DNA from: an archaeon | GTDB taxonomy: Archaea > Nanobdellota > Nanobdellia > SCGC-AAA011-G17 > GW2011-AR20 | Assembly: GCA_002688355.1 (NCBI GenBank) | Contig: NZCT01000025.1 | Location: forward strand, 27,175-91,174 | Reading direction: 5' to 3' | DNA length: 64,000 nt | In this document: piece after piece, positions 3,442 to 62,879 of the stretch | Numbering within the stretch: the first letter of the stretch is position 1 | Layout: each line of letters starts with the position of its first letter | The notes under the pieces: model-generated | Told to the model about the DNA's origin: nothing | Databases searched by the model: none | Seen by the model: only the letters and a program-made list of their open reading frames with translations | Translations under genes and position numbers: made by a program

Positions 3442-4389
3442 ATGGGTAAAACAAGTAAACCAAGAGCAGGATCTTTGCAGTTTTGGCATAGAAAGAGAGC
3501 TAGAAGAATCTATCCAAGAATAAGATCATGGACAAAATTAAGCAAATCTCCATTATTAGGTTTCATTGGATACAAAGTTGGAATAACACAAGTTCAAGGC
3601 TTAGATCAAAACCCTGCAAAAAAATCAAAAGAACCAATTGTTACAGCTGCAACAATAATAGAGTGCCCACCAATTAAGACATTATCTATAAGATACTATC
3701 AAAAGTCCTACAAGGGTTTAAAAGTTGTAGGAGAAAAACTTGCAGAAAAACTTGACAAAAGTTTAGATAAAAAATTAAGATTACCTAAAAATCCAAAAAA
3801 CAAAGAAATAAAGGAATTTGATGATATAAGATTAGTATTATACACTCAACCAAAACTAACAACTATAAATAAAAAGAAACCTGAAATTTTCGAAGTTGCT
3901 TTACCAGGAAAAAAAGAAGAAAAACTAGAGTTAGCAAATAAATATCTTAATTCTGAAATTAAAATTTCTGAAATTTTCGAAGAAAATACATTAATAGATG
4001 TTCATGCTGTAACAAAAGGAAAAGGATTCCAAGGAGCAGTAAAAAGATTTGGAATATCTCTAAAATCTCACAAATCTGAGAAGAAAAGAAGATCGGCAGG
4101 AAACATGGGTGCTTGGACGCCTAAAAAAGTTTCATTCAGAATACCACAAGCAGGACAAACAGGATATCACACAAGAACAGAACACAACAAATTAATATTC
4201 AAAATAAGTGATAAGTTAGAAGAAATAAATCCAAAAGCTGGGTTTACCCATTATGGTAATGTTAAAAACGAATACATAATTGTTAAAGGCTCAATCCCTG
4301 GCGCTATTAAAAGACCAGTAAGATTAACAGCAGCAATGAGACCTCAAAAAAACATTTCACAATTCCAATTACAAGAAATTAAAAAATGA
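3442..4389 (+). CDS. rpl3: Ribosomal protein uL3
   Basis: N-terminal KPRAGSLQFWHRKRA..., C-terminal QAGQTGYHTRTEHN; canonical operon position. Confidence 0.9.
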   Translation: MGKTSKPRAGSLQFWHRKRARRIYPRIRSWTKLSKSPLLGFIGYKVGITQVQGLDQNPAKKSKEPIVTAATIIECPPIKTLSIRYYQKSYKGLKVVGEKLAEKLDKSLDKKLRLPKNPKNKEIKEFDDIRLVLYTQPKLTTINKKKPEIFEVALPGKKEEKLELANKYLNSEIKISEIFEENTLIDVHAVTKGKGFQGAVKRFGISLKSHKSEKKRRSAGNMGAWTPKKVSFRIPQAGQTGYHTRTEHNKLIFKISDKLEEINPKAGFTHYGNVKNEYIIVKGSIPGAIKRPVRLTAAMRPQKNISQFQLQEIKK

Positions 4390-5207
4390 AAATAAATATA
4401 CTAGATTTAACAGGAAAAGAAATTAAAAAAATAGATACTCCTGAACAATTTAATGAAGAATATCATCCAAATTTAATCAAAAGAGCAGTTCAAGTAATTC
4501 AAGCTAATAAGAGATCTGCATATGGTGCAAAACCTAGGGCAGGGAAAAGATCTTCATCTAAATTATCAAGAAGAAGAAAAGATTACAAAGGTGCATATAA
4601 CCACGGAATGTCAAGAGTCCCAAGAAAAGTATCTTGGAGAAGGGGAATGCAGTTTGGATATGTTGGAGCATGGGCACCTGGAACTGTTGGAGGTAGAAAA
4701 GCACATCCACCAAAAGCAGAAAAAATCTGGTCAAAAAAAATAAACATAAAAGAAAAAAGAAAAGCTATTAGATCATCTCTATCTGCAACACTAAATTTAG
4801 AAATAATAAAAGAAAGAAATGAAATAGTTCCTAAAAATTTTCCATTTTTCGTATCTTCAGATGTAGAAGATTCAAAAAAGACAAAAGAAGTTTTAACATT
4901 CTTAAATAAATTAGGGTTTAAAGAAGAATTAGAAAGATCTAGTAAAAAAAATGTAAGAGCAGGAAAAGGTAAAATAAGAAATAGGCCTTACAAAAAGAAA
5001 TTAGGTCCTTTAATCGTTGTTTCAAAGAAATGTTCATTACTAAAATCTGCATTAAACTTGCCTGGAGTGGATATAGTGGAAATTAAAAACATAAATTCAG
5101 AATTGTTAGCACCTGGAACTCAACCTGGTCGTTTAACACTTTATACTGAAAATTCAATAGAAATTCTAAACAAAGAAAGATTATTTCTGGACAAAAATAC
5201 AAAATGA
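4386..5207 (+). CDS. rpl4: Ribosomal protein uL4
   Basis: L4/L1e-like sequence and operon position; overlaps the L3 stop (ATGA). Confidence 0.85.
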   Translation: MKINILDLTGKEIKKIDTPEQFNEEYHPNLIKRAVQVIQANKRSAYGAKPRAGKRSSSKLSRRRKDYKGAYNHGMSRVPRKVSWRRGMQFGYVGAWAPGTVGGRKAHPPKAEKIWSKKINIKEKRKAIRSSLSATLNLEIIKERNEIVPKNFPFFVSSDVEDSKKTKEVLTFLNKLGFKEELERSSKKNVRAGKGKIRNRPYKKKLGPLIVVSKKCSLLKSALNLPGVDIVEIKNINSELLAPGTQPGRLTLYTENSIEILNKERLFLDKNTK

Positions 5208-5473
5208 AAAATAAAGATCCTTACTCAATCATAAAAAATCCAATCTCTACTGAAAAAGCTGTTAGAATAATGGAGACAGATAATAAATTAACTTTCGTAG
5301 TAAATAGAAAGTCAACTAAATCAGAAATTAAAAAGTCTCTTGAAGATATTTATAGTTTAAAAATAACTAAAGTAAATACAGCTGTTACAAACAAAGGTAT
5401 TAAAAAAGCATATATAAAATTACCAAAAGACGTAATTGCTTTAGATATAGCAACTCAGATCGGCATAATGTAA
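5204..5473 (+). CDS. rpl23: Ribosomal protein uL23
   Basis: PISTEKAVRIMETDNKLTFVV...KITKVNT. Confidence 0.85.
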   Translation: MKNKDPYSIIKNPISTEKAVRIMETDNKLTFVVNRKSTKSEIKKSLEDIYSLKITKVNTAVTNKGIKKAYIKLPKDVIALDIATQIGIM

Positions 5474-5474
5474 A

Positions 5475-6188
5475 ATGGGAAAACCCTTAATTCAACAAAG
5501 ACGTGGAAAAGGATCTATAAGATTCAGATCACCTAGTCATAATTATAAAACAAAGATAAATTTCCCTACCATAAATGAACCTATGTTGGGAATAGTAGAA
5601 GATTTTATTCATGATTCTTCTAAAAATGCACCTGTAGCAGAAGTTAAATTTAATAATAAGGAAAAAATTTTCCTACCAGCTATAGAGGGTCTAAAAATAG
5701 GAGACAAAATTAATTATCTAAATAAGAATAAAGCTAAAGGTAGTATATTAAGATTAAAAGAAATTGCAATAGGTGCTAATATTTCCAGTATAGAGAAAAT
5801 ACCAAACTCTCCTCAAGGTTCTTTCTGTAGATCTGCAGGATCAACTGCAACAATTTTTGCAAAAACAAAAAAATCAATTACAATTTTATTTCATTCAAAA
5901 AAGAAAAAAACATTTCATCCAGAGTGTAGAGCTATGTTAGGGATAGTCGCAGGATCTGGAAGATTAGATAAACCAATCGTTAAAGCTGGAAAGAAACATC
6001 ACATGATGAAAGCTAGAAATAGATTCTGGCCTAAAGTTTCTGGTGTTTCTATGAATGCAGTAGCACATCCATTTGGTTCTGGAAGAGGAAAACATTTAGG
6101 AAAACCAAAAACACCGCCAAGATTTGCATCACCTGGAAGAAAAGTAGGTCAAATCCACGCAAAGAGAACAGGAAGGAAGAACAAATAA
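5475..6188 (+). CDS. rpl2: Ribosomal protein uL2
   Basis: MGKPLIQQRRGKGS...; C-terminal GKHLGKPKTPP. Confidence 0.9.
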   Translation: MGKPLIQQRRGKGSIRFRSPSHNYKTKINFPTINEPMLGIVEDFIHDSSKNAPVAEVKFNNKEKIFLPAIEGLKIGDKINYLNKNKAKGSILRLKEIAIGANISSIEKIPNSPQGSFCRSAGSTATIFAKTKKSITILFHSKKKKTFHPECRAMLGIVAGSGRLDKPIVKAGKKHHMMKARNRFWPKVSGVSMNAVAHPFGSGRGKHLGKPKTPPRFASPGRKVGQIHAKRTGRKNK

Positions 6189-6189
6189 A

Positions 6190-6585
6190 ATGGCTAAAGA
6201 ATTTACTTACAAAGGTCACAATCTAGAACAATTAAAGAAAATGGAAGTAGAAGAGCTAATGAAAATAATGCCTTCTAGTAAAAGAAGATCTTTGAAAAGG
6301 GGATATTCAGAAGAACAAAATAAGCTTCTTAAAAAAATAGACAGAGTAATAGAAGGATCTTATAAAAAACCAATAAAAACTCATTGTAGAGATATAATTA
6401 TAATCCCAAAAATGGTTAATTTAACAATTCATGTTCATAAAGGAAACGCATTCATCCCTGTACATATTGCTCCAGAAAGCATTGGAATGTACTTAGGAGA
6501 ATTAGTTCTAACAAGACAAAGAGTTCAACATTCTGCACCAGGGGTTGGAGCAACAAAATCAAGTGCTTCTGTATCTGTAAAATAA
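6190..6585 (+). CDS. rps19: Ribosomal protein uS19
   Basis: RRSLKRGYSEEQNKLLKKI, GHN/HVHKG motifs. Confidence 0.85.
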   Translation: MAKEFTYKGHNLEQLKKMEVEELMKIMPSSKRRSLKRGYSEEQNKLLKKIDRVIEGSYKKPIKTHCRDIIIIPKMVNLTIHVHKGNAFIPVHIAPESIGMYLGELVLTRQRVQHSAPGVGATKSSASVSVK

Positions 6586-8256: not shown

Positions 8257-8444
8257 TGGCCACCAAATTACCAGAAATAACATTGATAGGATCAAAAATA
8301 AAAGTTAAAGACTCAAAAAACAAAACATTAATTGGCCTTCAAGGAAAAGTCATTGATGAAACTAAAAACACAATTACAATCGAACACAATAACAAAGTTA
8401 AAAAATTAATAAGATCACAAGTAAAAATCGAAAAAATAAAATGA
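8256..8444 (+). CDS. rnp1: RNase P protein subunit Rpp29/Rnp1 (short form)
   Basis: Sm-like LIGLQGKVIDETKNTITIEHNNKVKKLIRSQVKIEK; conserved position between SUI1 and S17. Confidence 0.55.
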   Translation: MATKLPEITLIGSKIKVKDSKNKTLIGLQGKVIDETKNTITIEHNNKVKKLIRSQVKIEKIK

Positions 8445-8773
8445 AAGCAAAAACAAAAAATATAGGGTTGGGTATTAAAGCACCTAAAGCTAGTTGTAAT
8501 AGTGTAACCTGTCCGTTCCATGGAAATTTGAAGATAAGAGGAAGATTATTCAAAGGAGATCTAATTAAAAAAGATATATCTAACACAGCTATAATGTCTT
8601 TCTCTTATTATAATTATTTAAGAAAATATGAAAGGTATGAAAAGAAGAGAACAAGAATTAAGGTTCATAATCCAACCTGCATAGATGCAAACATAGGGGA
8701 TAAAGTATTAATTGGTGAAACAAGACCAATATCTAAAAATAAAAATTTCGTAATACTAGAAATAATAAAATGA
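8441..8773 (+). CDS. rps17: Ribosomal protein uS17
   Basis: GNLKIRGRLFKGDLIKK... and operon position. Confidence 0.85.
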   Translation: MKAKTKNIGLGIKAPKASCNSVTCPFHGNLKIRGRLFKGDLIKKDISNTAIMSFSYYNYLRKYERYEKKRTRIKVHNPTCIDANIGDKVLIGETRPISKNKNFVILEIIK

Positions 8774-9171
8774 AAGCAATTGAAGCAAGAATAACAAAAT
8801 CACTTCCATTTGGTGCAAGACTGAATGTTTGTGATAACTCAGGATCAAAGATAATTAGGATATTCTCTGTTTACAAACATAAAACTGTAAAAGGGAGATA
8901 TCAGGCAGCAGGTGTTGGAGACATGGTTAATTGTTCAATTATAAAAGGTAAACCTGGAACAAAGAAAGAAACAGTACAAGCAATTATAGTTAGGCAAAAA
9001 AAAGAATTTAGAAGAAAAACAGGAGAAAGAGTGAAATTTGAAGACAATTCAGCAGTGGTTCTTAAAGATGACAAAGGCAATCCGAAAGGAACAATAATCA
9101 AAGGGCCTATAGCAAAAGAAGTAGCAGCTAAATGGCCAGCAGTAGCAAAAATAGCAAGTGCCATACTATAA
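8770..9171 (+). CDS. rpl14: Ribosomal protein uL14
   Basis: LNVCDNSGSKIIRIFSV... Confidence 0.9.
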   Translation: MKAIEARITKSLPFGARLNVCDNSGSKIIRIFSVYKHKTVKGRYQAAGVGDMVNCSIIKGKPGTKKETVQAIIVRQKKEFRRKTGERVKFEDNSAVVLKDDKGNPKGTIIKGPIAKEVAAKWPAVAKIASAIL

Positions 9172-51524: not shown

Positions 51525-51955
51525 TTTATATACAAAGGATGAGAATGTTTAAAAGTGTTTTTATGAAATTAAATTATATGGATAATCTAAAAAGTATACA
51601 TGAAAATATTTTAAAAAAGATAAAAGGGGAAGGGGCATTAGAAGGAATACTCACATATAGAGAACATAAGGAGATATATGAAAAACTGCCTACAGAACAT
51701 GCTGAATTCTATTGGAGAGAAATATTCCAAGCAATAGAGAAGAAAGAGAATTTACAACCCATAAGTATCTTAGCAAAAGATGATCCTTTTAATGATGTAG
51801 ATCTATTTTCTCTAGCTGAAGATGAATTACTAGAAATAAGAAAATATAGGCAAAATTTACCTCTTGATATTAGTTTAGCAAATTATATTTTTGATGTATA
51901 TGAAAACTCTATAAAATTATTTCATAAATGGAAAGAAATACCTATTTCAAATTAA
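51509..51955 (+). CDS. Hypothetical protein
   Basis: ORF only. Confidence 0.3.
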   Translation: MLRLPFYIQRMRMFKSVFMKLNYMDNLKSIHENILKKIKGEGALEGILTYREHKEIYEKLPTEHAEFYWREIFQAIEKKENLQPISILAKDDPFNDVDLFSLAEDELLEIRKYRQNLPLDISLANYIFDVYENSIKLFHKWKEIPISN

Positions 51956-53021
51956 CAATAGTCTTAGTTCCTTTTATACCTAAACTTACTTCTTTAAAAT
52001 TTATTAACTTCAAATCTCGTAATTTATTTAGTTTAGATTCTTTAAATCTCCTATATTTTATTTCTTTATCACTCTTTCCCAAGTATAATTCATATATTTC
52101 TTTACTACTTTTGCTTTCATTATCTTTAATAATTTCTAATAGTAATCTTTCATCATCATTTAAACTTTTACTCTCAGAATTTTTATTTAATTCACCACTA
52201 GAAACTTTAATTTTATCAATAGCTTTCTTAGCATAATCTAAAGTTATTTTTTTACTAGAATTTTCTTCTGCAATATTCCCACTTTCCTTTAATAAAAATA
52301 AACCAGTTCTTAAATCATTTACATTATGAGTATATGAACTTATCTCATCTAAAGACTCTTTATCAAAAATATTACTAACAAAAGCATACTCAATTCTCTT
52401 ATCTAAAATACCTTTCACTTCTGTTAAATTATATGCTCTAAAATCTAAATTTTCTAAAGTTAATCTAGATCTTAATCTATTGTCTAATTTAATCAACCAT
52501 TCTTTATTATTTGTAATAAATATTAGTGTTTTATTATAAATTTGTTCTAAAACCATGTAGATCACAGAAATATCTTCTATCTTATCACATTCATCAAAAC
52601 AAATAACAGCAGATTTCCTATTTAATTTTTTTTTAATTTCATCAAATAATTCATTAGTAGTCTTATTATGTGTAAATTTATATCCAATAGCATCACATAT
52701 ATCTAAAGCAATTCTATGACTACTAGAGTCCTTCCAACAATTAATATAAATAGGTTTAACCTCTTCATCAAAACCATCATCTTCCAATTCTTTAAAAACA
52801 GCTTTTACAGCTAAAGTCTTTCCAATTCCTGGGCTTCCAGAAATAACAATATTTTTCCCATTTCTATTATGGAATAATGGTTTTATACATTCTGCAATAT
52901 ATTTTTGTTCATTTTCTCTGTATTGAATTATTGGAGGAAAGAAACTAATATCTAAAGCTAAGTGATTCTTAAATATAGATTCATCTCCTTTTAAAAAATC
53001 TCTATTAAATAAATCTGGCAT
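51942..53021 (-). CDS. orc1: Orc1/Cdc6 replication initiator
   Basis: AAA+ Walker A ISGSPGIGKTLAV, Walker B CFDECD, C-terminal winged helix. Confidence 0.85.
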   Translation of the reverse strand: MPDLFNRDFLKGDESIFKNHLALDISFFPPIIQYRENEQKYIAECIKPLFHNRNGKNIVISGSPGIGKTLAVKAVFKELEDDGFDEEVKPIYINCWKDSSSHRIALDICDAIGYKFTHNKTTNELFDEIKKKLNRKSAVICFDECDKIEDISVIYMVLEQIYNKTLIFITNNKEWLIKLDNRLRSRLTLENLDFRAYNLTEVKGILDKRIEYAFVSNIFDKESLDEISSYTHNVNDLRTGLFLLKESGNIAEENSSKKITLDYAKKAIDKIKVSSGELNKNSESKSLNDDERLLLEIIKDNESKSSKEIYELYLGKSDKEIKYRRFKESKLNKLRDLKLINFKEVSLGIKGTKTIVNLK

Positions 53022-53132
53022 TTTACAATATTTAAATTAACAAATCTTTTATACATTATTGTATTTTAGAATATACTTTAAACAAAACTTTTTTTACGTT
53101 AAATATATAAATTAATATGATTTAACAATAGT

Positions 53133-53333
53133 ATGGAAGTTAAAGTAATTTTAGAAAAACAAAAAGAAGGCGGTTACACAGTTTACGCTCCTTCATTATC
53201 AGGTTGTATTTCTCAAGGTGAGACAAAAGAAGAATCTCTAAAGAATATAAAAGAAGCTATAGAGTTATACTTAGAAGTTGATGAAAATGAAATAATTGTA
53301 TATGAAGGGGAGATTGCTGAAATTATAGTATGA
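53133..53333 (+). CDS. hicB: HicB-family antitoxin
   Basis: KQKEGGYTVYAPSLSGCISQGETKEESLKNIKEAIELYLE. Confidence 0.75.
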   Translation: MEVKVILEKQKEGGYTVYAPSLSGCISQGETKEESLKNIKEAIELYLEVDENEIIVYEGEIAEIIV

Positions 53334-53545
53334 AGCTTCCACAAATTTCTGGAAAAGATTTGATTAAAATTCTACGTAGAAATGGTTTTGTTGTTGTAAG
53401 ACAGAAAGGATCACATATAAGATTAGAGAAAAATACTGAAAAAGAAACTATTAAGATTACAGTACCAAATCATAAAACTATAAAAAAAGGAACATTAAAT
53501 CAGATTATAAAAGTATCAGGGTTAAAAGAAGAAGATTTGATATAA
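53330..53545 (+). CDS. hicA: HicA-family toxin (mRNA interferase)
   Basis: LIKILRRNGFVVVRQKGSHIRLEK...ITVPNHKTIKKGTLNQIIK; 4-nt overlap with hicB. Confidence 0.75.
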   Translation: MKLPQISGKDLIKILRRNGFVVVRQKGSHIRLEKNTEKETIKITVPNHKTIKKGTLNQIIKVSGLKEEDLI

Positions 53546-53546
53546 A

Positions 53547-53957
53547 ATGAAAAAAACTCAAAGCGCAGGTGGAATTGTTCTTTCTAGTAAAGGATTAATC
53601 TTAGTTGTAAATCAAAAAGGAACTTCTTGGTCTTTACCAAAAGGACATATTGAAAATAATGAAACTCCAATAGAAGCAGCAAAAAGAGAGATCTATGAAG
53701 AATCTGGAATAAACGAGCTAGAATTAATAAAAGAATTATCAACATACCAAAGACATAAGATAGGACTTCGCGAAGATGAAGATAAAACAGAATTAAAAAC
53801 AATTCAAATGTTCTTATTTAAAACAACCCAAGAAAACTTAAAACCAATTGACCCACACAATCCAGAAGCAAGATGGGTTCCCAAAGATAAAGTAGAAAAT
53901 TTACTAACACATAAAAAAGATAAAGAATTTTTCTTAAATCATATTAATGAAATATAA
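53547..53957 (+). CDS. NUDIX hydrolase
   Basis: Perfect Nudix box GHIENNETPIEAAKREIYEESGI; start 1 nt after the hicA stop. Confidence 0.85.
   Translation: MKKTQSAGGIVLSSKGLILVVNQKGTSWSLPKGHIENNETPIEAAKREIYEESGINELELIKELSTYQRHKIGLREDEDKTELKTIQMFLFKTTQENLKPIDPHNPEARWVPKDKVENLLTHKKDKEFFLNHINEI
53907..53957 (+). repeat. 51-bp direct repeat, copy A (3' end of the nudix gene)
   Basis: acacataaaaaagataaagaatttttcttaaatcatattaatgaaatataa; 49/51 identical to 54471-54521. Confidence 0.8.
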
Positions 53958-54012
53958 CAATATTATTTTAAGCTTCGATAGAATTAAATAGATAATAATT
54001 TTTATTGATGAC

Positions 54013-54450
54013 ATGAAACCAAAGTTTCTTTATCATGGAAGCAATGCATTGATTAAGGAAAAATTTCTCAAAGAAAATACACCTACGGACAAGACTTCTA
54101 TTCATAATTATTTTTTTGGTGTTTACGCAACTGACAATAAGGATATAGCAAAAGGAATGGCTTTGGCTGGTTTTAGATTTACAAAAAGCTTTGGAGATTA
54201 TTCTAAAAAACCATTTAAAATTATTTTTGTTAGAGGAAAACCAAAAGGAAGATTTGTATATGTGTACAAAGTTTCATCATCATCATTTATTGAAAATCCA
54301 AAAAGATCGCATCAATGGATTTCTAGGAAAAATGTTAAAATCATTAATGTTGAAAAATTTTCAGTTGATTCTTTAAAGGAGTTTTGGCGAGGGGCAACAG
54401 CAAAAGAGAAATTGTGGTACTATAAACAGAAATCTAAAAGTTCAAGATAA
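54013..54450 (+). CDS. Small ADP-ribosyltransferase-fold (PARP/Tpt1-like, H-G-S type) protein, putative
   Basis: FLYHGS (cf. PARP LLWHGS, Tpt1 LYHGT) followed about 30 aa later by YFFGVYATD (cf. PARP GKGIYFAD). Confidence 0.35.
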   Translation: MKPKFLYHGSNALIKEKFLKENTPTDKTSIHNYFFGVYATDNKDIAKGMALAGFRFTKSFGDYSKKPFKIIFVRGKPKGRFVYVYKVSSSSFIENPKRSHQWISRKNVKIINVEKFSVDSLKEFWRGATAKEKLWYYKQKSKSSR

Positions 54451-54470
54451 ATGGACATAAGAGTAAATAT

Positions 54471-54521
54471 ACACATAAAAAAGATAAAGAATTTTTCTTA
54501 AATCATATTAGTGAAATTTAA
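54471..54521 (+). repeat. 51-bp direct repeat, copy B (duplicate of the nudix 3' end)
   Basis: acacataaaaaagataaagaatttttcttaaatcatattagtgaaatttaa. Confidence 0.8.
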
Positions 54522-54585
54522 AGCTTTGTTATTCAAAAGATATGTATTAGAAAACTTAATAATGTAAGGGAATTATTGTTTTAAT

Positions 54586-55332
54586 ATGACAAAAGATATT
54601 AAAAAGTGGTGGAATGAAGTATCAAAGAGTTATCAAATAGATTCAAAGATTAGAACTAAATCTGCCCACTACGGTCCATATTCTCCAGATGAAAAAAAGC
54701 TTAAATTGTTAGGAAACGTTAAAGGTAAAAAAATTTTAGAAGTTGGTTGTGGGGGTGGACAATGTTCTATTGCATTTGCAAAACAAGGAGCAAAATGTAC
54801 GGGTTTAGATTTGTCAAAAGAACAACTTAAGCATGCAGAAGAACTAGCAAAAAAAGAAAAAGTTTCAGTAAAATTTCTTAAACATGATATACAGACACTT
54901 AAAGGAATTAAATCAAAAGAGTATGATATTGTTTTTACTGCTTTTGCCCTACAATATATCCCAAATCTTACAAAATGCTTCAAGGAAGTGCATCGAGTCC
55001 TAAAAAGAAATGGTTTATTTGTTCTAAGTTTAGATCACCCTTTCTTCATGGTGATAGACACAAAAACAAACAAAATTAAAAGAAGTTATTTTAAAACAGG
55101 AAAAATAGAAGAAATTGATGTTTGGCCAGATAGTAGTAAACATAAATTTGTAATTTATAGAAGAAAGATAAGTGATATCTTTAATAGTTTAACTGAAGCT
55201 AAATTTTTTGTAGAGAAAATAATAGAGCCCTTATCAAAAAATGCAAAATCATGGAAATGGGAAGAAATTTATCCAAAAGAACTAGTTAAATTAGTTGGTC
55301 CAACAATAATTTTCAAAACAAAAAAGAAATAA
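54586..55332 (+). CDS. Class I SAM-dependent methyltransferase
   Basis: ILEVGCGGGQCSIAFAKQGAKCTGLDLS. Confidence 0.75.
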   Translation: MTKDIKKWWNEVSKSYQIDSKIRTKSAHYGPYSPDEKKLKLLGNVKGKKILEVGCGGGQCSIAFAKQGAKCTGLDLSKEQLKHAEELAKKEKVSVKFLKHDIQTLKGIKSKEYDIVFTAFALQYIPNLTKCFKEVHRVLKRNGLFVLSLDHPFFMVIDTKTNKIKRSYFKTGKIEEIDVWPDSSKHKFVIYRRKISDIFNSLTEAKFFVEKIIEPLSKNAKSWKWEEIYPKELVKLVGPTIIFKTKKK

Positions 55333-55362
55333 TCCTAGCACAAATATTTGAGGTTATGAAAT

Positions 55363-55719
55363 TTAAACTTCTTCAACACCATCTTTTGTCAATGCTAAAA
55401 ATCTTATGCCAATTCCTAATTTCAATAAAGCAGACATTAACGCCATATGTTCTTTCCCAGTTCCAGAAACAAAATTCACAGCAACTTCTGATTCTTGAAT
55501 TCTTTTGCCTAGTTTTTCTTTAATCTCATCTCTTAATTCAATTAAACCTTGACCCATATTAACATTTATCAATTCTGTTTTATCATTACTATTAAAATTC
55601 TCCTTCCCATAATCATTAGTTATCAAATAAATTTTAGTCCATTCTTGATCTTGCATTAATCTAGCTACATGGCCCCAAGTTCCTTTTCCAGTTGATAAAC
55701 AAGCTATTAATTCTGCCAT
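55363..55719 (-). CDS. Hypothetical conserved small protein
   Basis: ORF; GKGTWGHVARL and VSGTGKEHMALMSALLKLG segments. Confidence 0.3.
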   Translation of the reverse strand: MAELIACLSTGKGTWGHVARLMQDQEWTKIYLITNDYGKENFNSNDKTELINVNMGQGLIELRDEIKEKLGKRIQESEVAVNFVSGTGKEHMALMSALLKLGIGIRFLALTKDGVEEV

Positions 55720-55766: not shown

Positions 55767-56384
55767 TTATTTCTTTTTTTCATTAAGAACTTTTTCTATT
55801 AATGGCTTCAAAGAAGAACTCAAAGCAACTCCAACAGCTATAGCTAATATTAATCCTAATGTATATAACCCAACTCTAAATATTTCAAGAAATGGAGTAA
55901 CCTTAACTCCAATAGCTTCTAAAGCAGATAGTATAGTTGCATATATAAAGACAATTTCTAAAAATTTAGCTAATAAGTTATTATGATTAAATTCTATAGA
56001 TCTTATTTTTCTAGATAAAACATTAGTAATAATTAATCCAATAACAATAATAAAAAATGCAATAGCTAATTTAGGAACAAAATTAATTGACAATCTTAGA
56101 ATTTCATCTAATAAATAGATCTTAAAAGCAGACAATGCCTGTAAAAAGAACATTAAAATAATAACCCATTGAACCACATCAGCTACTAAATTAACTCCAG
56201 AAACCGTTCTTTTGTACAATCCTGGAGATGTTTTTCTAACCCATGGGTATATGTTAATTTTAGCTATTTTCTTAATAATAACTTTAATCAAATAACCTAA
56301 AAATACTCCTAAAAACAGTAAAAAGCCTATCTTAAGCCATTCTGTTATTCCTATTTGAGGGATTGCTATGTCTGTTATTGCCAT
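55767..56384 (-). CDS. Hypothetical integral membrane protein
   Basis: 5-6 predicted TM helices. Confidence 0.4.
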   Translation of the reverse strand: MAITDIAIPQIGITEWLKIGFLLFLGVFLGYLIKVIIKKIAKINIYPWVRKTSPGLYKRTVSGVNLVADVVQWVIILMFFLQALSAFKIYLLDEILRLSINFVPKLAIAFFIIVIGLIITNVLSRKIRSIEFNHNNLLAKFLEIVFIYATILSALEAIGVKVTPFLEIFRVGLYTLGLILAIAVGVALSSSLKPLIEKVLNEKKK

Positions 56385-60746: not shown

Positions 60747-62879
60747 ATGAAGAGAATCTTGTTTTTAACCCTAATTTTAGCTATTTTCTTAATTTCTAGT
60801 GTAAATGCTGCTAACATTGATATAATAACACCAAAAGACGATTATCTAGCAAAAGAGACATTTCAAGCAGAAATTATTCTAAATATAGATTCTTTAAGCA
60901 AGATTTCAACAAATAATTTAAAACTAATCAATGAAACTAATTCAATAATTCCAGTACAATACTTTTTAGAACAATTAACAAATAAACACTATTTTATCTA
61001 TTTTAACTTACCAAACATAGATCAAGGAATCTATAAATTTCAACTAGATAATATTCAATATAAGTTAGATAATTCCCTTAAAATAGAATCTCCATTTAAA
61101 GAATTTAACATAAAAAAACTAAATCCTGGATTTGACTATTTACTAGAAAATCAAAATTCTGATGGTTCTTTTAATTCAATTTCGGAAACAGCTTTAGCTT
61201 CCTTGGCGTTAAAAAATATTTATCCTTCTCAAGCTAAAAAATCATTAAATTACTTAGAAAATAATCAAGATCCTTTAGGTTGTTATCCAAAAGGAAATTG
61301 TAATATAAAAGACACTTCTTTTGCTCTACTTTCTTTACATAATTTTAACAAAGATACTACAAAAATAACAAATTGGTTATTAGGTGCACAAAATAATTTT
61401 GATATTGGTTCTTGGACCTTAACATTAAACTCTGGAAGTTCCTGTTTAGTAAATAATCAAAACTATCAAACTTCTCAATCAATAGATATAAATGTAAATA
61501 CTGAAAATTTAATAATATCTTGTGATGCAGAAACAGAAATAACATTAAAACATTCTTTCCTAGGAAACGTAAAAACAATTCAACAATTACAAGCTACTGA
61601 AGCAAATATAACAATTGACAATTCTCAATGCTTTGGAAAAAATTACAAATCTGAATGTGATTATGAATCTACTTCTTTAGCTCTTTATTCTTTAAAACAA
61701 ACTGGAAATACAATAACAACAAATTATCTCCAAGAAAATCCTTCAGATACAAAAACTCTAGATCAAGCTTTTTTAAATTTATTAAACAATAATCAATATT
61801 CAAAAGATTGGTTAGAAAATAATTTAATAACTAATCAAAACGCATGGTCCCTTTCCTCAGTTTCAATATCTCAAACCCCAGATGTTTACTCGACTATATT
61901 TGCAACACTTTCATTAAAAGATACAGAACAATATGAAAAATCTATAAAATACTTAGAAAAGCAAACAACGAATAATATTTTAAATTCTGCTTTAATTTTA
62001 CATCTTTTCTTAGCTGATCAACAAAAAGAACCAATAATTTCTATATTCCCTGCATTCATTAATAAAAAAGGATCATTTGATTTAATTATAAAAAACGAAA
62101 ATAATATTCCTACTTTAGTAAAAGTAAATTCTCCAAACTTTACAAACATTCCAGCTAGTTTCACATTAGAAAACACAAAAGTATTTTCAGTAAATGTTCC
62201 TAAAACCTCTAAAGATTTTAATATAGAAATAGATTATGGAAATAATTCTTACTCAATATCTGTAATAACTGGAAACTTAACTCAAGGCTCCAACGGAATA
62301 AAACCATTAATTCAACCACCAGAAAATTCAATCTTAATCTTAACAAAAGACCTTTCTGAAAAAACTTCATTAATTGCAACCTTACTCAAGGAAGATGAAA
62401 TAACTGATGATTTAAGAATAAAAAATAATTGGGACTTTATCTTAAATAACATAAAAATAGAATTAACAGGAAATTTAGCAGAAATAATAGAACTTGAAAA
62501 ATACAATTATAACACAATACAACCAAACGAGATATTAAAACAGAAAATAATTATTAATAAGAATAAAAATTCTCTAGGATTATTTGAAGGGGAATTAATT
62601 ATAACAACAGATGAACTAACTCTAACATCATTACCAATATCTTTAACATTTACAGAAGATGAATCTAAAGTTGATACTCTTGAAGATAATGATAAAGATG
62701 AAATTAACGAAACTGAAGAAGATAATGGACCTACAGAAGATGATGATAAAATTTCTCCATGGATATGGTTAATACCTTTCTTTATTTTAGTAACAATCGG
62801 TATAATAATTTTTATATATTCAAGAGGACCTAAAAATAATACATTTAATAAATATATAGAAGGTATAAAAAAGAAATGA
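60747..62879 (+). CDS. Cell-surface alpha/alpha-toroid-repeat protein, paralogue of 21718-23319, with C-terminal TM anchor
   Basis: Signal peptide; repeats LLENQNSDGSFNSISETALASLAL and CYPKGNCNIKDTSFALLSL; acidic linker; TM WIWLIPFFILVTIGIIIFIY. Confidence 0.6.
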   Translation: MKRILFLTLILAIFLISSVNAANIDIITPKDDYLAKETFQAEIILNIDSLSKISTNNLKLINETNSIIPVQYFLEQLTNKHYFIYFNLPNIDQGIYKFQLDNIQYKLDNSLKIESPFKEFNIKKLNPGFDYLLENQNSDGSFNSISETALASLALKNIYPSQAKKSLNYLENNQDPLGCYPKGNCNIKDTSFALLSLHNFNKDTTKITNWLLGAQNNFDIGSWTLTLNSGSSCLVNNQNYQTSQSIDINVNTENLIISCDAETEITLKHSFLGNVKTIQQLQATEANITIDNSQCFGKNYKSECDYESTSLALYSLKQTGNTITTNYLQENPSDTKTLDQAFLNLLNNNQYSKDWLENNLITNQNAWSLSSVSISQTPDVYSTIFATLSLKDTEQYEKSIKYLEKQTTNNILNSALILHLFLADQQKEPIISIFPAFINKKGSFDLIIKNENNIPTLVKVNSPNFTNIPASFTLENTKVFSVNVPKTSKDFNIEIDYGNNSYSISVITGNLTQGSNGIKPLIQPPENSILILTKDLSEKTSLIATLLKEDEITDDLRIKNNWDFILNNIKIELTGNLAEIIELEKYNYNTIQPNEILKQKIIINKNKNSLGLFEGELIITTDELTLTSLPISLTFTEDESKVDTLEDNDKDEINETEEDNGPTEDDDKISPWIWLIPFFILVTIGIIIFIYSRGPKNNTFNKYIEGIKKK

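Follow-up and report, generated by a model that had tools for sequence, protein, structure and literature searches.

How does the end of a gene come to stand on both sides of a single foreign gene? This question is raised by a locus in a 64,000-nt chromosome segment of a marine, Woesearchaeota-like DPANN archaeon (contig NZCT01000025.1, positions 27,175 to 91,174; hereafter the window). The last 51 nt of a NUDIX hydrolase gene, stop codon included, recur there downstream of an open reading frame (ORF) of 145 aa. The original prediction read the arrangement as site-specific integration (attL/attR) of either a decayed element or a minimal mobile cassette. We favour, with moderate confidence, a different reading, in which the downstream 51-mer is the scar of additive recombination between haplotypes of a gene-insertion hot spot between the Cdc6 gene and orf118. 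We infer the route itself from things that are directly observed, namely the repeat, the inserted unit, the hot spot, an unoccupied site in relatives, the lack of a recombinase or attP in the searches made and a precedent at another locus, L007.

The two copies of the 51-nt repeat lie at 53907-53957 and 54471-54521, at the coordinates first proposed for them, with 49/51 identical positions, a gap of 513 nt and a start-to-start spacing of 564 nt. They are identical over the first 40 nt, and the two mismatches, AAT/AGT (N/S) and ATA/ATT (I/I), are confined to the last 11 nt. The edges of the repeat are sharp. Identity drops to background directly 5′ of ACACAT and directly 3′ of the TAA stop, and no homology between the copies was found past the 51 nt. 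An 8-mer, AAGATAAA, located 16-20 nt upstream of the copies was rejected as extended homology, being out of register. The 40-mer occurs twice in the 64-kb window, with 0 occurrences expected from 100 shuffles, and the NUDIX-end repeat is the sole strong local direct repeat in it. Among 81 genes, the NUDIX gene alone is followed by an orphaned duplicate of its own 3′ end (score 43 versus a background of ~14), and no further orphan gene ends or comparable repeats were found in the whole window. The NUDIX gene itself (53547..53957, + strand; Pfam NUDIX, E=7.7e-19) is intact and encodes 136 aa. Copy 1 can be identified as its native 3′ end, because the C-terminal tail encoded by the repeat (THKKDKEFFL..I..I) is conserved across the NUDIX family. 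Copy 2, on the same strand, has no start codon, ends in TAA and is therefore an orphan; it also matches the 3′ end of the NUDIX gene at the related locus L027 described below.

The original prediction would, in its own terms, be refuted if the repeat were an assembly artefact, and we considered such an artefact together with a chimera of two haplotypes. In favour of such an origin, short contigs break at the repeat, ending inside it or just past it, which is also what is expected for a true repeat. However, the locus is 100% identical across 12.4 kb in contigs of independent assemblies and samples (Tara Oceans metagenomes), all with the same arrangement. One of the supporting contigs is a MEGAHIT 'k127' contig, a prefix that we take to mean a final k of 127, longer than the repeat, and the length of the Tara reads is presumably about 100 nt. 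With a repeat shorter than both the reads and the implied k, reads must span each copy and both of its flanks. The chance that the arrangement is an artefact or chimera is therefore vanishingly small.

To characterise what lies between the copies, we compared this DNA with homologous loci. The 145-aa ORF (54013-54450) sits between the repeat copies, as first described; its product may have an ADP-ribosyltransferase (ART) fold, as discussed below, and we refer to it as ART-like. Three loci in two other archaeal genomes (L006 and L010/L011) match the window at ~80% DNA identity over 53963-54450/54460 only. This homology begins 6 nt past copy 1 and stops 10-20 nt before copy 2, and the surroundings of the unit homologues are unrelated. 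The DNA between the repeats is thus foreign to its position, as had been proposed, and belongs to a discrete single-gene unit that recurs elsewhere in unrelated contexts. The intervening 513 bp are a genuine insertion. The unit (53963..54450, + strand) is single-copy within the window and consists of the ORF and a 50-nt leader in which a TATA-like box, TTAAATAG, precedes the ATG by ~26 nt. The leader is more conserved than synonymous sites, and the ORF has a dN/dS of 0.18-0.22, showing purifying selection. Gaps of 5 and 20 nt lie between the unit and the two copies of the 51-nt repeat. The 5-nt junction CAATA (53958..53962), from the NUDIX stop to the cassette, lies outside the repeat and outside the L006/L010 homology. 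The initial part, GGACATAA, of the 20-nt junction ATGGACATAAGAGTAAATAT (54451..54470) is shared with the beginning of the inter-cassette element found after the homologue in L006. Of the two options first put forward for the insert, a minimal cassette is the better fit and a decayed larger element the poorer one, because the edges of the insert coincide, within 5 and 10-20 nt, with those of a unit shared with other genomes.

A 13-nt terminal inverted repeat (TIR; TTATTTTGAGCTC ... GAGCTCAAAATAA) stands precisely at the two ends of this unit. Its arms are located at 53963-53975 and 54438-54450 in the window, at 4951-4963 and 5426-5438 in L006 and at 400-412 and 879-891 in L010. They match at 13/13 positions in L006 (0/3000 shuffles), at 12/13 in L010 and, in the window, at no more than 10/13; the right arm overlaps the end of the ORF (last codons and stop). 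If abutted, the ends would make a 26-bp palindrome. The unit ends are nevertheless ragged: L010 retains 55 nt of the element that lies upstream of the unit in L006, and the window retains ~10 nt (GGACATAA) of the element that lies downstream of it there. No short duplication abutting the TIR was found in L006, L010 or the window. When the surroundings of all 12 homologue loci were searched, the window, L006 and L007 alone gave significant flanking repeats, and L022 gave a weak intergenic 23-mer. These flanking repeats are target-derived, are 27-63 nt long and differ between genomes. The L006 neighbourhood has a feature of its own. At 4878-6215, at the contig end, single genes alternate with a structured element of ~70-85 nt, present in four copies, in a cassette-array-like manner. 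Each copy combines a hairpin of the form ACATAA-N5-TTATGT with a GC-rich hairpin that shows compensatory changes, and its tail is one of two types that alternate along the array. These elements fold as three separate hairpins without long-range pairing. This folding and the lack of an Rfam hit ruled out an attC site or a known RNA, single chance-level matches ruled out a genome-wide or viral repeat, and the element is absent from the other loci.

Is the site occupied in relatives? A genome-collection scan with Cdc6 gave only distant relatives (38-47% identity); the closest were reached via a Cdc6 protein search and are labelled Woesearchaeota or Nanoarchaeia. In these relatives Cdc6 is 66-70% and orf118 89-90% identical to the window, and the order alaS, orf141, orf180, TFE, orf65, Cdc6 ... 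orf118 is shared. The Cdc6/Orc1 gene (51942..53021, - strand; Pfam AAA_22 and Cdc6_lid) forms the left border of a variable slot in the window and in L027-L031. Its right border is orf118 (55363..55719, - strand), which is 89-90% identical in L027 and L031 and 60% identical in L023, where it adjoins Cdc6. The slot spans 53022-55362 in the window, 274-321 in L023, 6374-7000 in L027 and 464-1145 in L031. In L027-L030, where Cdc6 is 66% and orf118 90% identical to the window, it holds a single NUDIX gene (136 aa, same orientation, 62% identical), followed by a 117-nt spacer and then orf118, and the NUDIX 3′ end is single-copy. In L031 the slot holds an unrelated 168-aa ORF, and in the more distant L023 it is empty, with orf118 and Cdc6 48 nt apart. 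The contents therefore range from nothing to NUDIX alone, a 168-aa ORF or, in the window, five genes, and the Cdc6/orf118 slot is thus a gene-insertion hot spot.

The relatives also provide the empty site that had been suggested as a check, in the form of an unoccupied and unduplicated NUDIX 3′ end in L027-L030, at genus or family level. The expected order, with the methyltransferase immediately after NUDIX, was not found; in these relatives orf118 is the next gene after NUDIX. The methyltransferase is therefore an addition too. Since HicBA, the 145-aa unit and the methyltransferase are all absent from the relatives, they are additions in the lineage of the window. Inter-lineage DNA conservation stops at three places: at a Cdc6-proximal segment, at the orf118 stop and exactly at the NUDIX stop. 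The first of these is an intergenic segment at 53039..53078 with 81-83% blastn identity to L027 and L031, where the homology on the left side ends. The sequences that follow copy 1, copy 2 and the L027 NUDIX stop are unrelated to one another, and no significant homology was found between the spacers that follow the stop codons in the window and in L027. A restored empty-site junction would read ATT-A[A/G]T-GAA-AT[A/T]-TAA followed by AGCTTTGTTATTC, and a circle or tandem junction would read GAGTAAATAT, the 51-mer and CAATATTATTTTAAGC.

A close precedent for the orphan gene end is seen at L007/L008 (two samples; 3647-5487), around a homologue of the 145-aa ORF. Here the 3′ end of the upstream permease gene is present three times: the native end at 3647-3709, a 63-nt orphan at 4519-4581 (59/63 identical, TAG changed to TAA) and a 36-nt orphan at 4941-4976. 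All of these ends reach the stop codon or 9 nt beyond it. A different single-gene unit follows each permease end: first a methyltransferase gene, which is encoded on the opposite strand, then a 95-aa ORF, and last the ART-like ORF. At the end of the first unit stand 35 nt (4478-4512) that perfectly repeat the 3′ end region of a convergent NTP-transferase gene. The native version of these 35 nt (5453-5487) closes the array, and the copy at 4478-4512 abuts the permease orphan at an AAAGTT microhomology. Since this unit bears the ends of both flanking genes, it is derived from another version of the same locus. The sequence of L007 thus points to allelic DNA that was added and not exchanged. The window matches this pattern, with an edge at the stop codon, an arbitrary proximal junction, few differences and different cargo on each side, and we therefore read the 51-mer as a displaced NUDIX end.

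How might such a displacement have come about? In the mechanism that we propose, two haplotypes, each with a different cargo starting right after the NUDIX stop, would have recombined additively. One end of the incoming DNA would have paired homologously within a conserved flank, and the other would have been joined illegitimately 51 nt upstream of the resident NUDIX stop. The process would be homology-facilitated illegitimate recombination; put differently, an allelic fragment that had circularised would have integrated in the Campbell manner, by a single crossover within the 51 nt of homology. Its product would be an intact NUDIX gene, one cargo, a displaced NUDIX end and the other cargo. 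The repeat would end at the stop because inter-haplotype homology ends there, its other edge would be the illegitimate junction, and the mismatches would be allelic differences. What the window holds is in keeping with this: the start-less orphan, in direct orientation, is the conserved end of the adjacent intact gene, and the edge of the repeat is the limit of homology between locus variants, as is the case for the three permease ends in L007. In addition, the ART-like unit lies on one side of the orphan and the methyltransferase gene on the other, in a locus that is variable in relatives.

Several observations weigh against this mechanism. No sister or parental haplotype (NUDIX-methyltransferase or NUDIX-insert-orf118) was found in the collections, in which the lineage is very thinly sampled. 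We also searched this population for an empty-site allele, through exact matches to NUDIX, the methyltransferase and the insert ORF and through cluster membership for these three and orf118. All population contigs are identical and show the occupied form only, and the 90% cluster of each protein has 1 member. Unlike L007, the insert in the window has no fragment of the opposite flank, orf118, and clear microhomology was not seen at the junction between TAAATAT and ACACAT. The mechanism also leaves unaccounted for the 13-nt TIR and an inverted, partial third copy (17/18) of the repeat core TTCTTAAATCATATTAAT, located at 53111..53128 on the - strand, 5 nt upstream of the HicB start; the two hint at a sequence-specific process. 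The core has only 3 matches in the 64 kb versus 0.17 expected, of which this copy is one, and its score is reached in 6/2000 shuffles and in 1/3000 random windows. It may represent a recombination site, a scar or an operator for HicB. Finally, the relatives are only at genus or family level (NUDIX 62% identical), so the order of events is one that we infer.

The attL/attR reading would have a trans-acting tyrosine or serine recombinase join an element-borne, NUDIX-end-like site to the chromosomal NUDIX end, with the cassette as a non-autonomous cis-mobilisable element. Much in the locus resembles this. The direct repeats lie at a gene 3′ end and leave the gene intact, and an identical direct core stands at both junctions (40 nt perfect within 49/51) before a stretch that diverges up to the stop, as if the element had brought along a gene end of its own. 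The same locus holds the 18-nt core a third time, in inverted orientation, and the repeated permease ends in L007 look like tandem accretion at a single att site. However, the insert is a single 145-aa ORF and, as first noted, has no integrase. Pfam searches found no integrase, transposase or other recombinase domain in the genes of the locus (48-60.5 kb), nor in 20 integrase-sized ORFs elsewhere in the window (E<=1e-8). The homologous units of L006, L007 and L009-L022 have no NUDIX-like DNA or protein and no 18-mer core that could represent an attP, and the cassette ends are ragged. From genome to genome the repeats derive from the ends of different genes and vary in sequence and length: they comprise 51 nt from NUDIX in the window, but 63, 36 and 35 nt from two other genes in L007. 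The 3′ end of the opposite flank in the L007 unit is not predicted by integration at an att site. The proposed search in viral and plasmid DNA gave nothing in its favour either: the 31-mer core was not found among viral contigs, and phage and plasmid collections yielded no match to the locus. We therefore regard trans-acting integration as unlikely; the original prediction was right in what it observed and probably wrong in the mechanism.

The TIRs, which lie exactly at the ends of the shared unit, bring transposition into consideration. Here the ~490-bp unit would have been inserted, by a transposase acting in trans or by end-joining, at a 51-nt staggered break that was then filled in, and the target-derived, locus-specific nature of the repeats agrees with such a target-site duplication. 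Yet no short or fixed duplication abuts the TIRs at any locus, and 5 and 20 extra nt intervene here. A staggered break would leave unexplained why the edge coincides with a stop codon here and twice in L007, and it fails to explain the 35-nt copy of the opposite flank in L007. No transposase was found among the locus genes and ORFs tested in the window. We consider this reading rather unlikely. To our knowledge, 51 nt far exceeds the duplications made by known prokaryotic transposons. In a bolder proposal, a dedicated and hitherto undescribed DPANN route would capture TIR-bounded, ~0.5-kb promoter-plus-gene cassettes at resident stop codons, with a host recombinase acting on 18-mer-type cores (two direct copies and one inverted) and 27-63 nt of target duplicated per capture, and the L006 array would be the storage form. 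This we judge to be quite improbable. A tandem duplication that included NUDIX, followed by loss or replacement of most of the second copy and independent arrival of the ART-like unit, would be compatible with the 49/51 near-identity of the copies, which allows an intragenomic origin. It needs several events, there is no other remnant of a second NUDIX upstream of 54471, and the insert edges coincide with those of a unit that is mobile elsewhere; we consider it very improbable.

How does additive recombination at this locus compare with known systems? The most similar in working are the orphan rhs-CT/rhsI and cdiA-CT/cdiI modules of Rhs and contact-dependent inhibition (CDI) systems. In these, the intact main gene has downstream of it a start-less piece of its own conserved portion, followed by different cargo (PMC3967940); the piece has been read as displaced by recombining incoming DNA. 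The window locus shares the displaced, start-less gene end and the different cargo. The orphans of Rhs and CDI systems differ in that they carry a whole alternative toxin domain and immunity gene, with hundreds of bp of homology, whereas the window has only the last 51 nt of a housekeeping-type NUDIX gene, its cargo consists of independent genes and not of alternative tips, and its host is an archaeon. The locus also resembles laboratory events in transformable bacteria: homology-facilitated illegitimate recombination and insertion-duplication are said to have been described there by de Vries and Wackernagel in 2002 and by Prudhomme and colleagues in 2002 (both cited in PMC2884548). In such events one homologous anchor and one illegitimate (microhomology) join insert foreign DNA, and a circular or one-sided substrate duplicates the targeting segment, all without a dedicated recombinase. 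The laboratory events differ in that they concern bacteria, usually have anchors of at least 100 bp and often result in deletion instead of duplication. We know of no natural DPANN example that has been described with duplications of 27-63 nt.

Integrase islands that duplicate gene 3′ ends include e14 and phage 21 at icd, tRNA-gene islands, cis-mobilisable elements (CIMEs) and additive flexible genomic islands. They are similar to the window locus in that their direct repeats are the 3′ end of a target gene that is reconstituted, and in that tandem accretion reiterates gene ends. They differ in requiring an integrase and a travelling attP, neither of which was found here, and the cargo in the window is a single 0.5-kb gene. 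Archaeal integrons also exist, and integrase-less arrays (CALINs), which are common, occur in Nanoarchaeota too (PMC9668308). Their cassettes are promoter-poor or single-gene units of ~0.5-1 kb arranged head to tail, and the L006 surroundings of the homologous gene have the look of such an array. In contrast to the window, integron cassettes produce no target duplication, and the window cassette has its own promoter. No attC was found: the window has only 20 nt after the ORF, and the L006 elements have no R''/R' pairing and no Rfam hit. Neither IntI nor attI was present among the genes and ORFs tested in the window, and the L006 contig ends inside the array. The 13-nt TIRs at the ends of the shared unit recall insertion sequences (IS) and miniature inverted-repeat transposable elements (MITEs); the unit in the window differs from these in encoding a conserved, non-transposase protein under purifying selection. 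An integron cassette, a standard IS and a MITE were each rejected as a class for the unit, for which no attC, no transposase and no short fixed duplication was found.

The 145-aa protein encoded by the unit has 18 close relatives in a word-indexed search, and a full profile search related it to 450 representative clusters. No Pfam family was above threshold, and sequence matches to DUF3990, ART-PolyVal and DUF6886 were below it. To examine its likely fold, we searched an AlphaFold2 model (pLDDT 92.3) against known structures. The best PDB matches were ~140-aa rifampin ADP-ribosyltransferases (Arr; prob 0.84-0.97, E 0.04-0.13, TM 0.41-0.44), with PARP1 catalytic domains lower in the list. Conserved residues in the family include LYHGS and GVYA, which we take to be PARP-like NAD-site motifs. 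The modelled structure makes an ART fold plausible; of the original 'ART-like' label, the fold thus stands as plausible, and the modest scores of the Arr matches leave it weakly supported and unproven. The neighbouring NUDIX is annotated as an ADP-ribose pyrophosphatase, so that an ART-like ORF next to it is suggestive of a meaningful pairing; the pairing does not recur in other genomes. No defence-system or phage family labels were found for the insert ORF. In distant relatives (P0303, P0386, P0408 and others), the ART-like domain is fused to Zeta-toxin/AAA_33-like, cytidylyltransferase-like or GNAT domains.

The remaining features of the locus are as follows. The gene order is Cdc6 (-), then HicB, HicA, NUDIX, the 145-aa ORF, the orphan and the S-adenosylmethionine (SAM) methyltransferase (all +), then orf118 (-). 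The HicB-HicA toxin-antitoxin pair (53133..53545, + strand; Pfam HicB_lk_antitox and HicA_toxin), which is absent from L023, L027 and L031, separates NUDIX from the conserved promoter segment near Cdc6. From the HicA stop to the NUDIX start there is a gap of 1 nt (53545-53547), and NUDIX is now probably co-transcribed with HicBA. The NUDIX protein is 63-73% identical to relatives in very different bacterial and archaeal phyla (>2000 relatives; P0020-P0138), and its similarity to the positional homologue in the closest relative is lower (62%). This suggests frequent horizontal transfer or replacement of NUDIX. A travelling HicBA-NUDIX module was rejected, as the nearest NUDIX homologues stand alone elsewhere. 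The class I SAM methyltransferase gene (54586..55332, + strand; Pfam Methyltransf_11 and others) is likewise absent from L023, L027 and L031. In L027, a gene for an IS1595-family transposase, absent from the window, is located at 3829-4608, ~1.4 kb past orf118. Archaeal replication origins usually adjoin cdc6/orc1. The window as a whole has 28% G+C, and its genes include those for ribosomal proteins L3 and L4, SecY, TFE, Cdc6/Orc1 and alanyl-tRNA synthetase. Genes for tRNA-Glu(CTC) and tRNA-Gln(CTG) lie 1 nt apart on the minus strand (2487-2646). Two other small direct repeats were noted, one of 30 nt at 8421-8450 and 8750-8779 (87% identity, 329-nt spacing) and a perfect one of 22 nt at 56255-56276 and 60772-60793 (4.5-kb spacing).

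What do these observations mean for DPANN archaea? With tiny genomes and few recognisable mobile elements, the way in which these organisms gain accessory genes is poorly understood. The window locus and L007 suggest a route that needs no recombinase, in which variants of a hot spot recombine additively and cargo accumulates between orphan gene ends. The cargo identified here is itself recurrent: a small, widely dispersed and selectively maintained ART-like gene with its own promoter. The locus also advises caution, as a duplicated gene 3′ end is not always an att site. Orphans that end at a stop codon and have no start are easy to scan for, and would provide a readable history of how such hot spots have grown.

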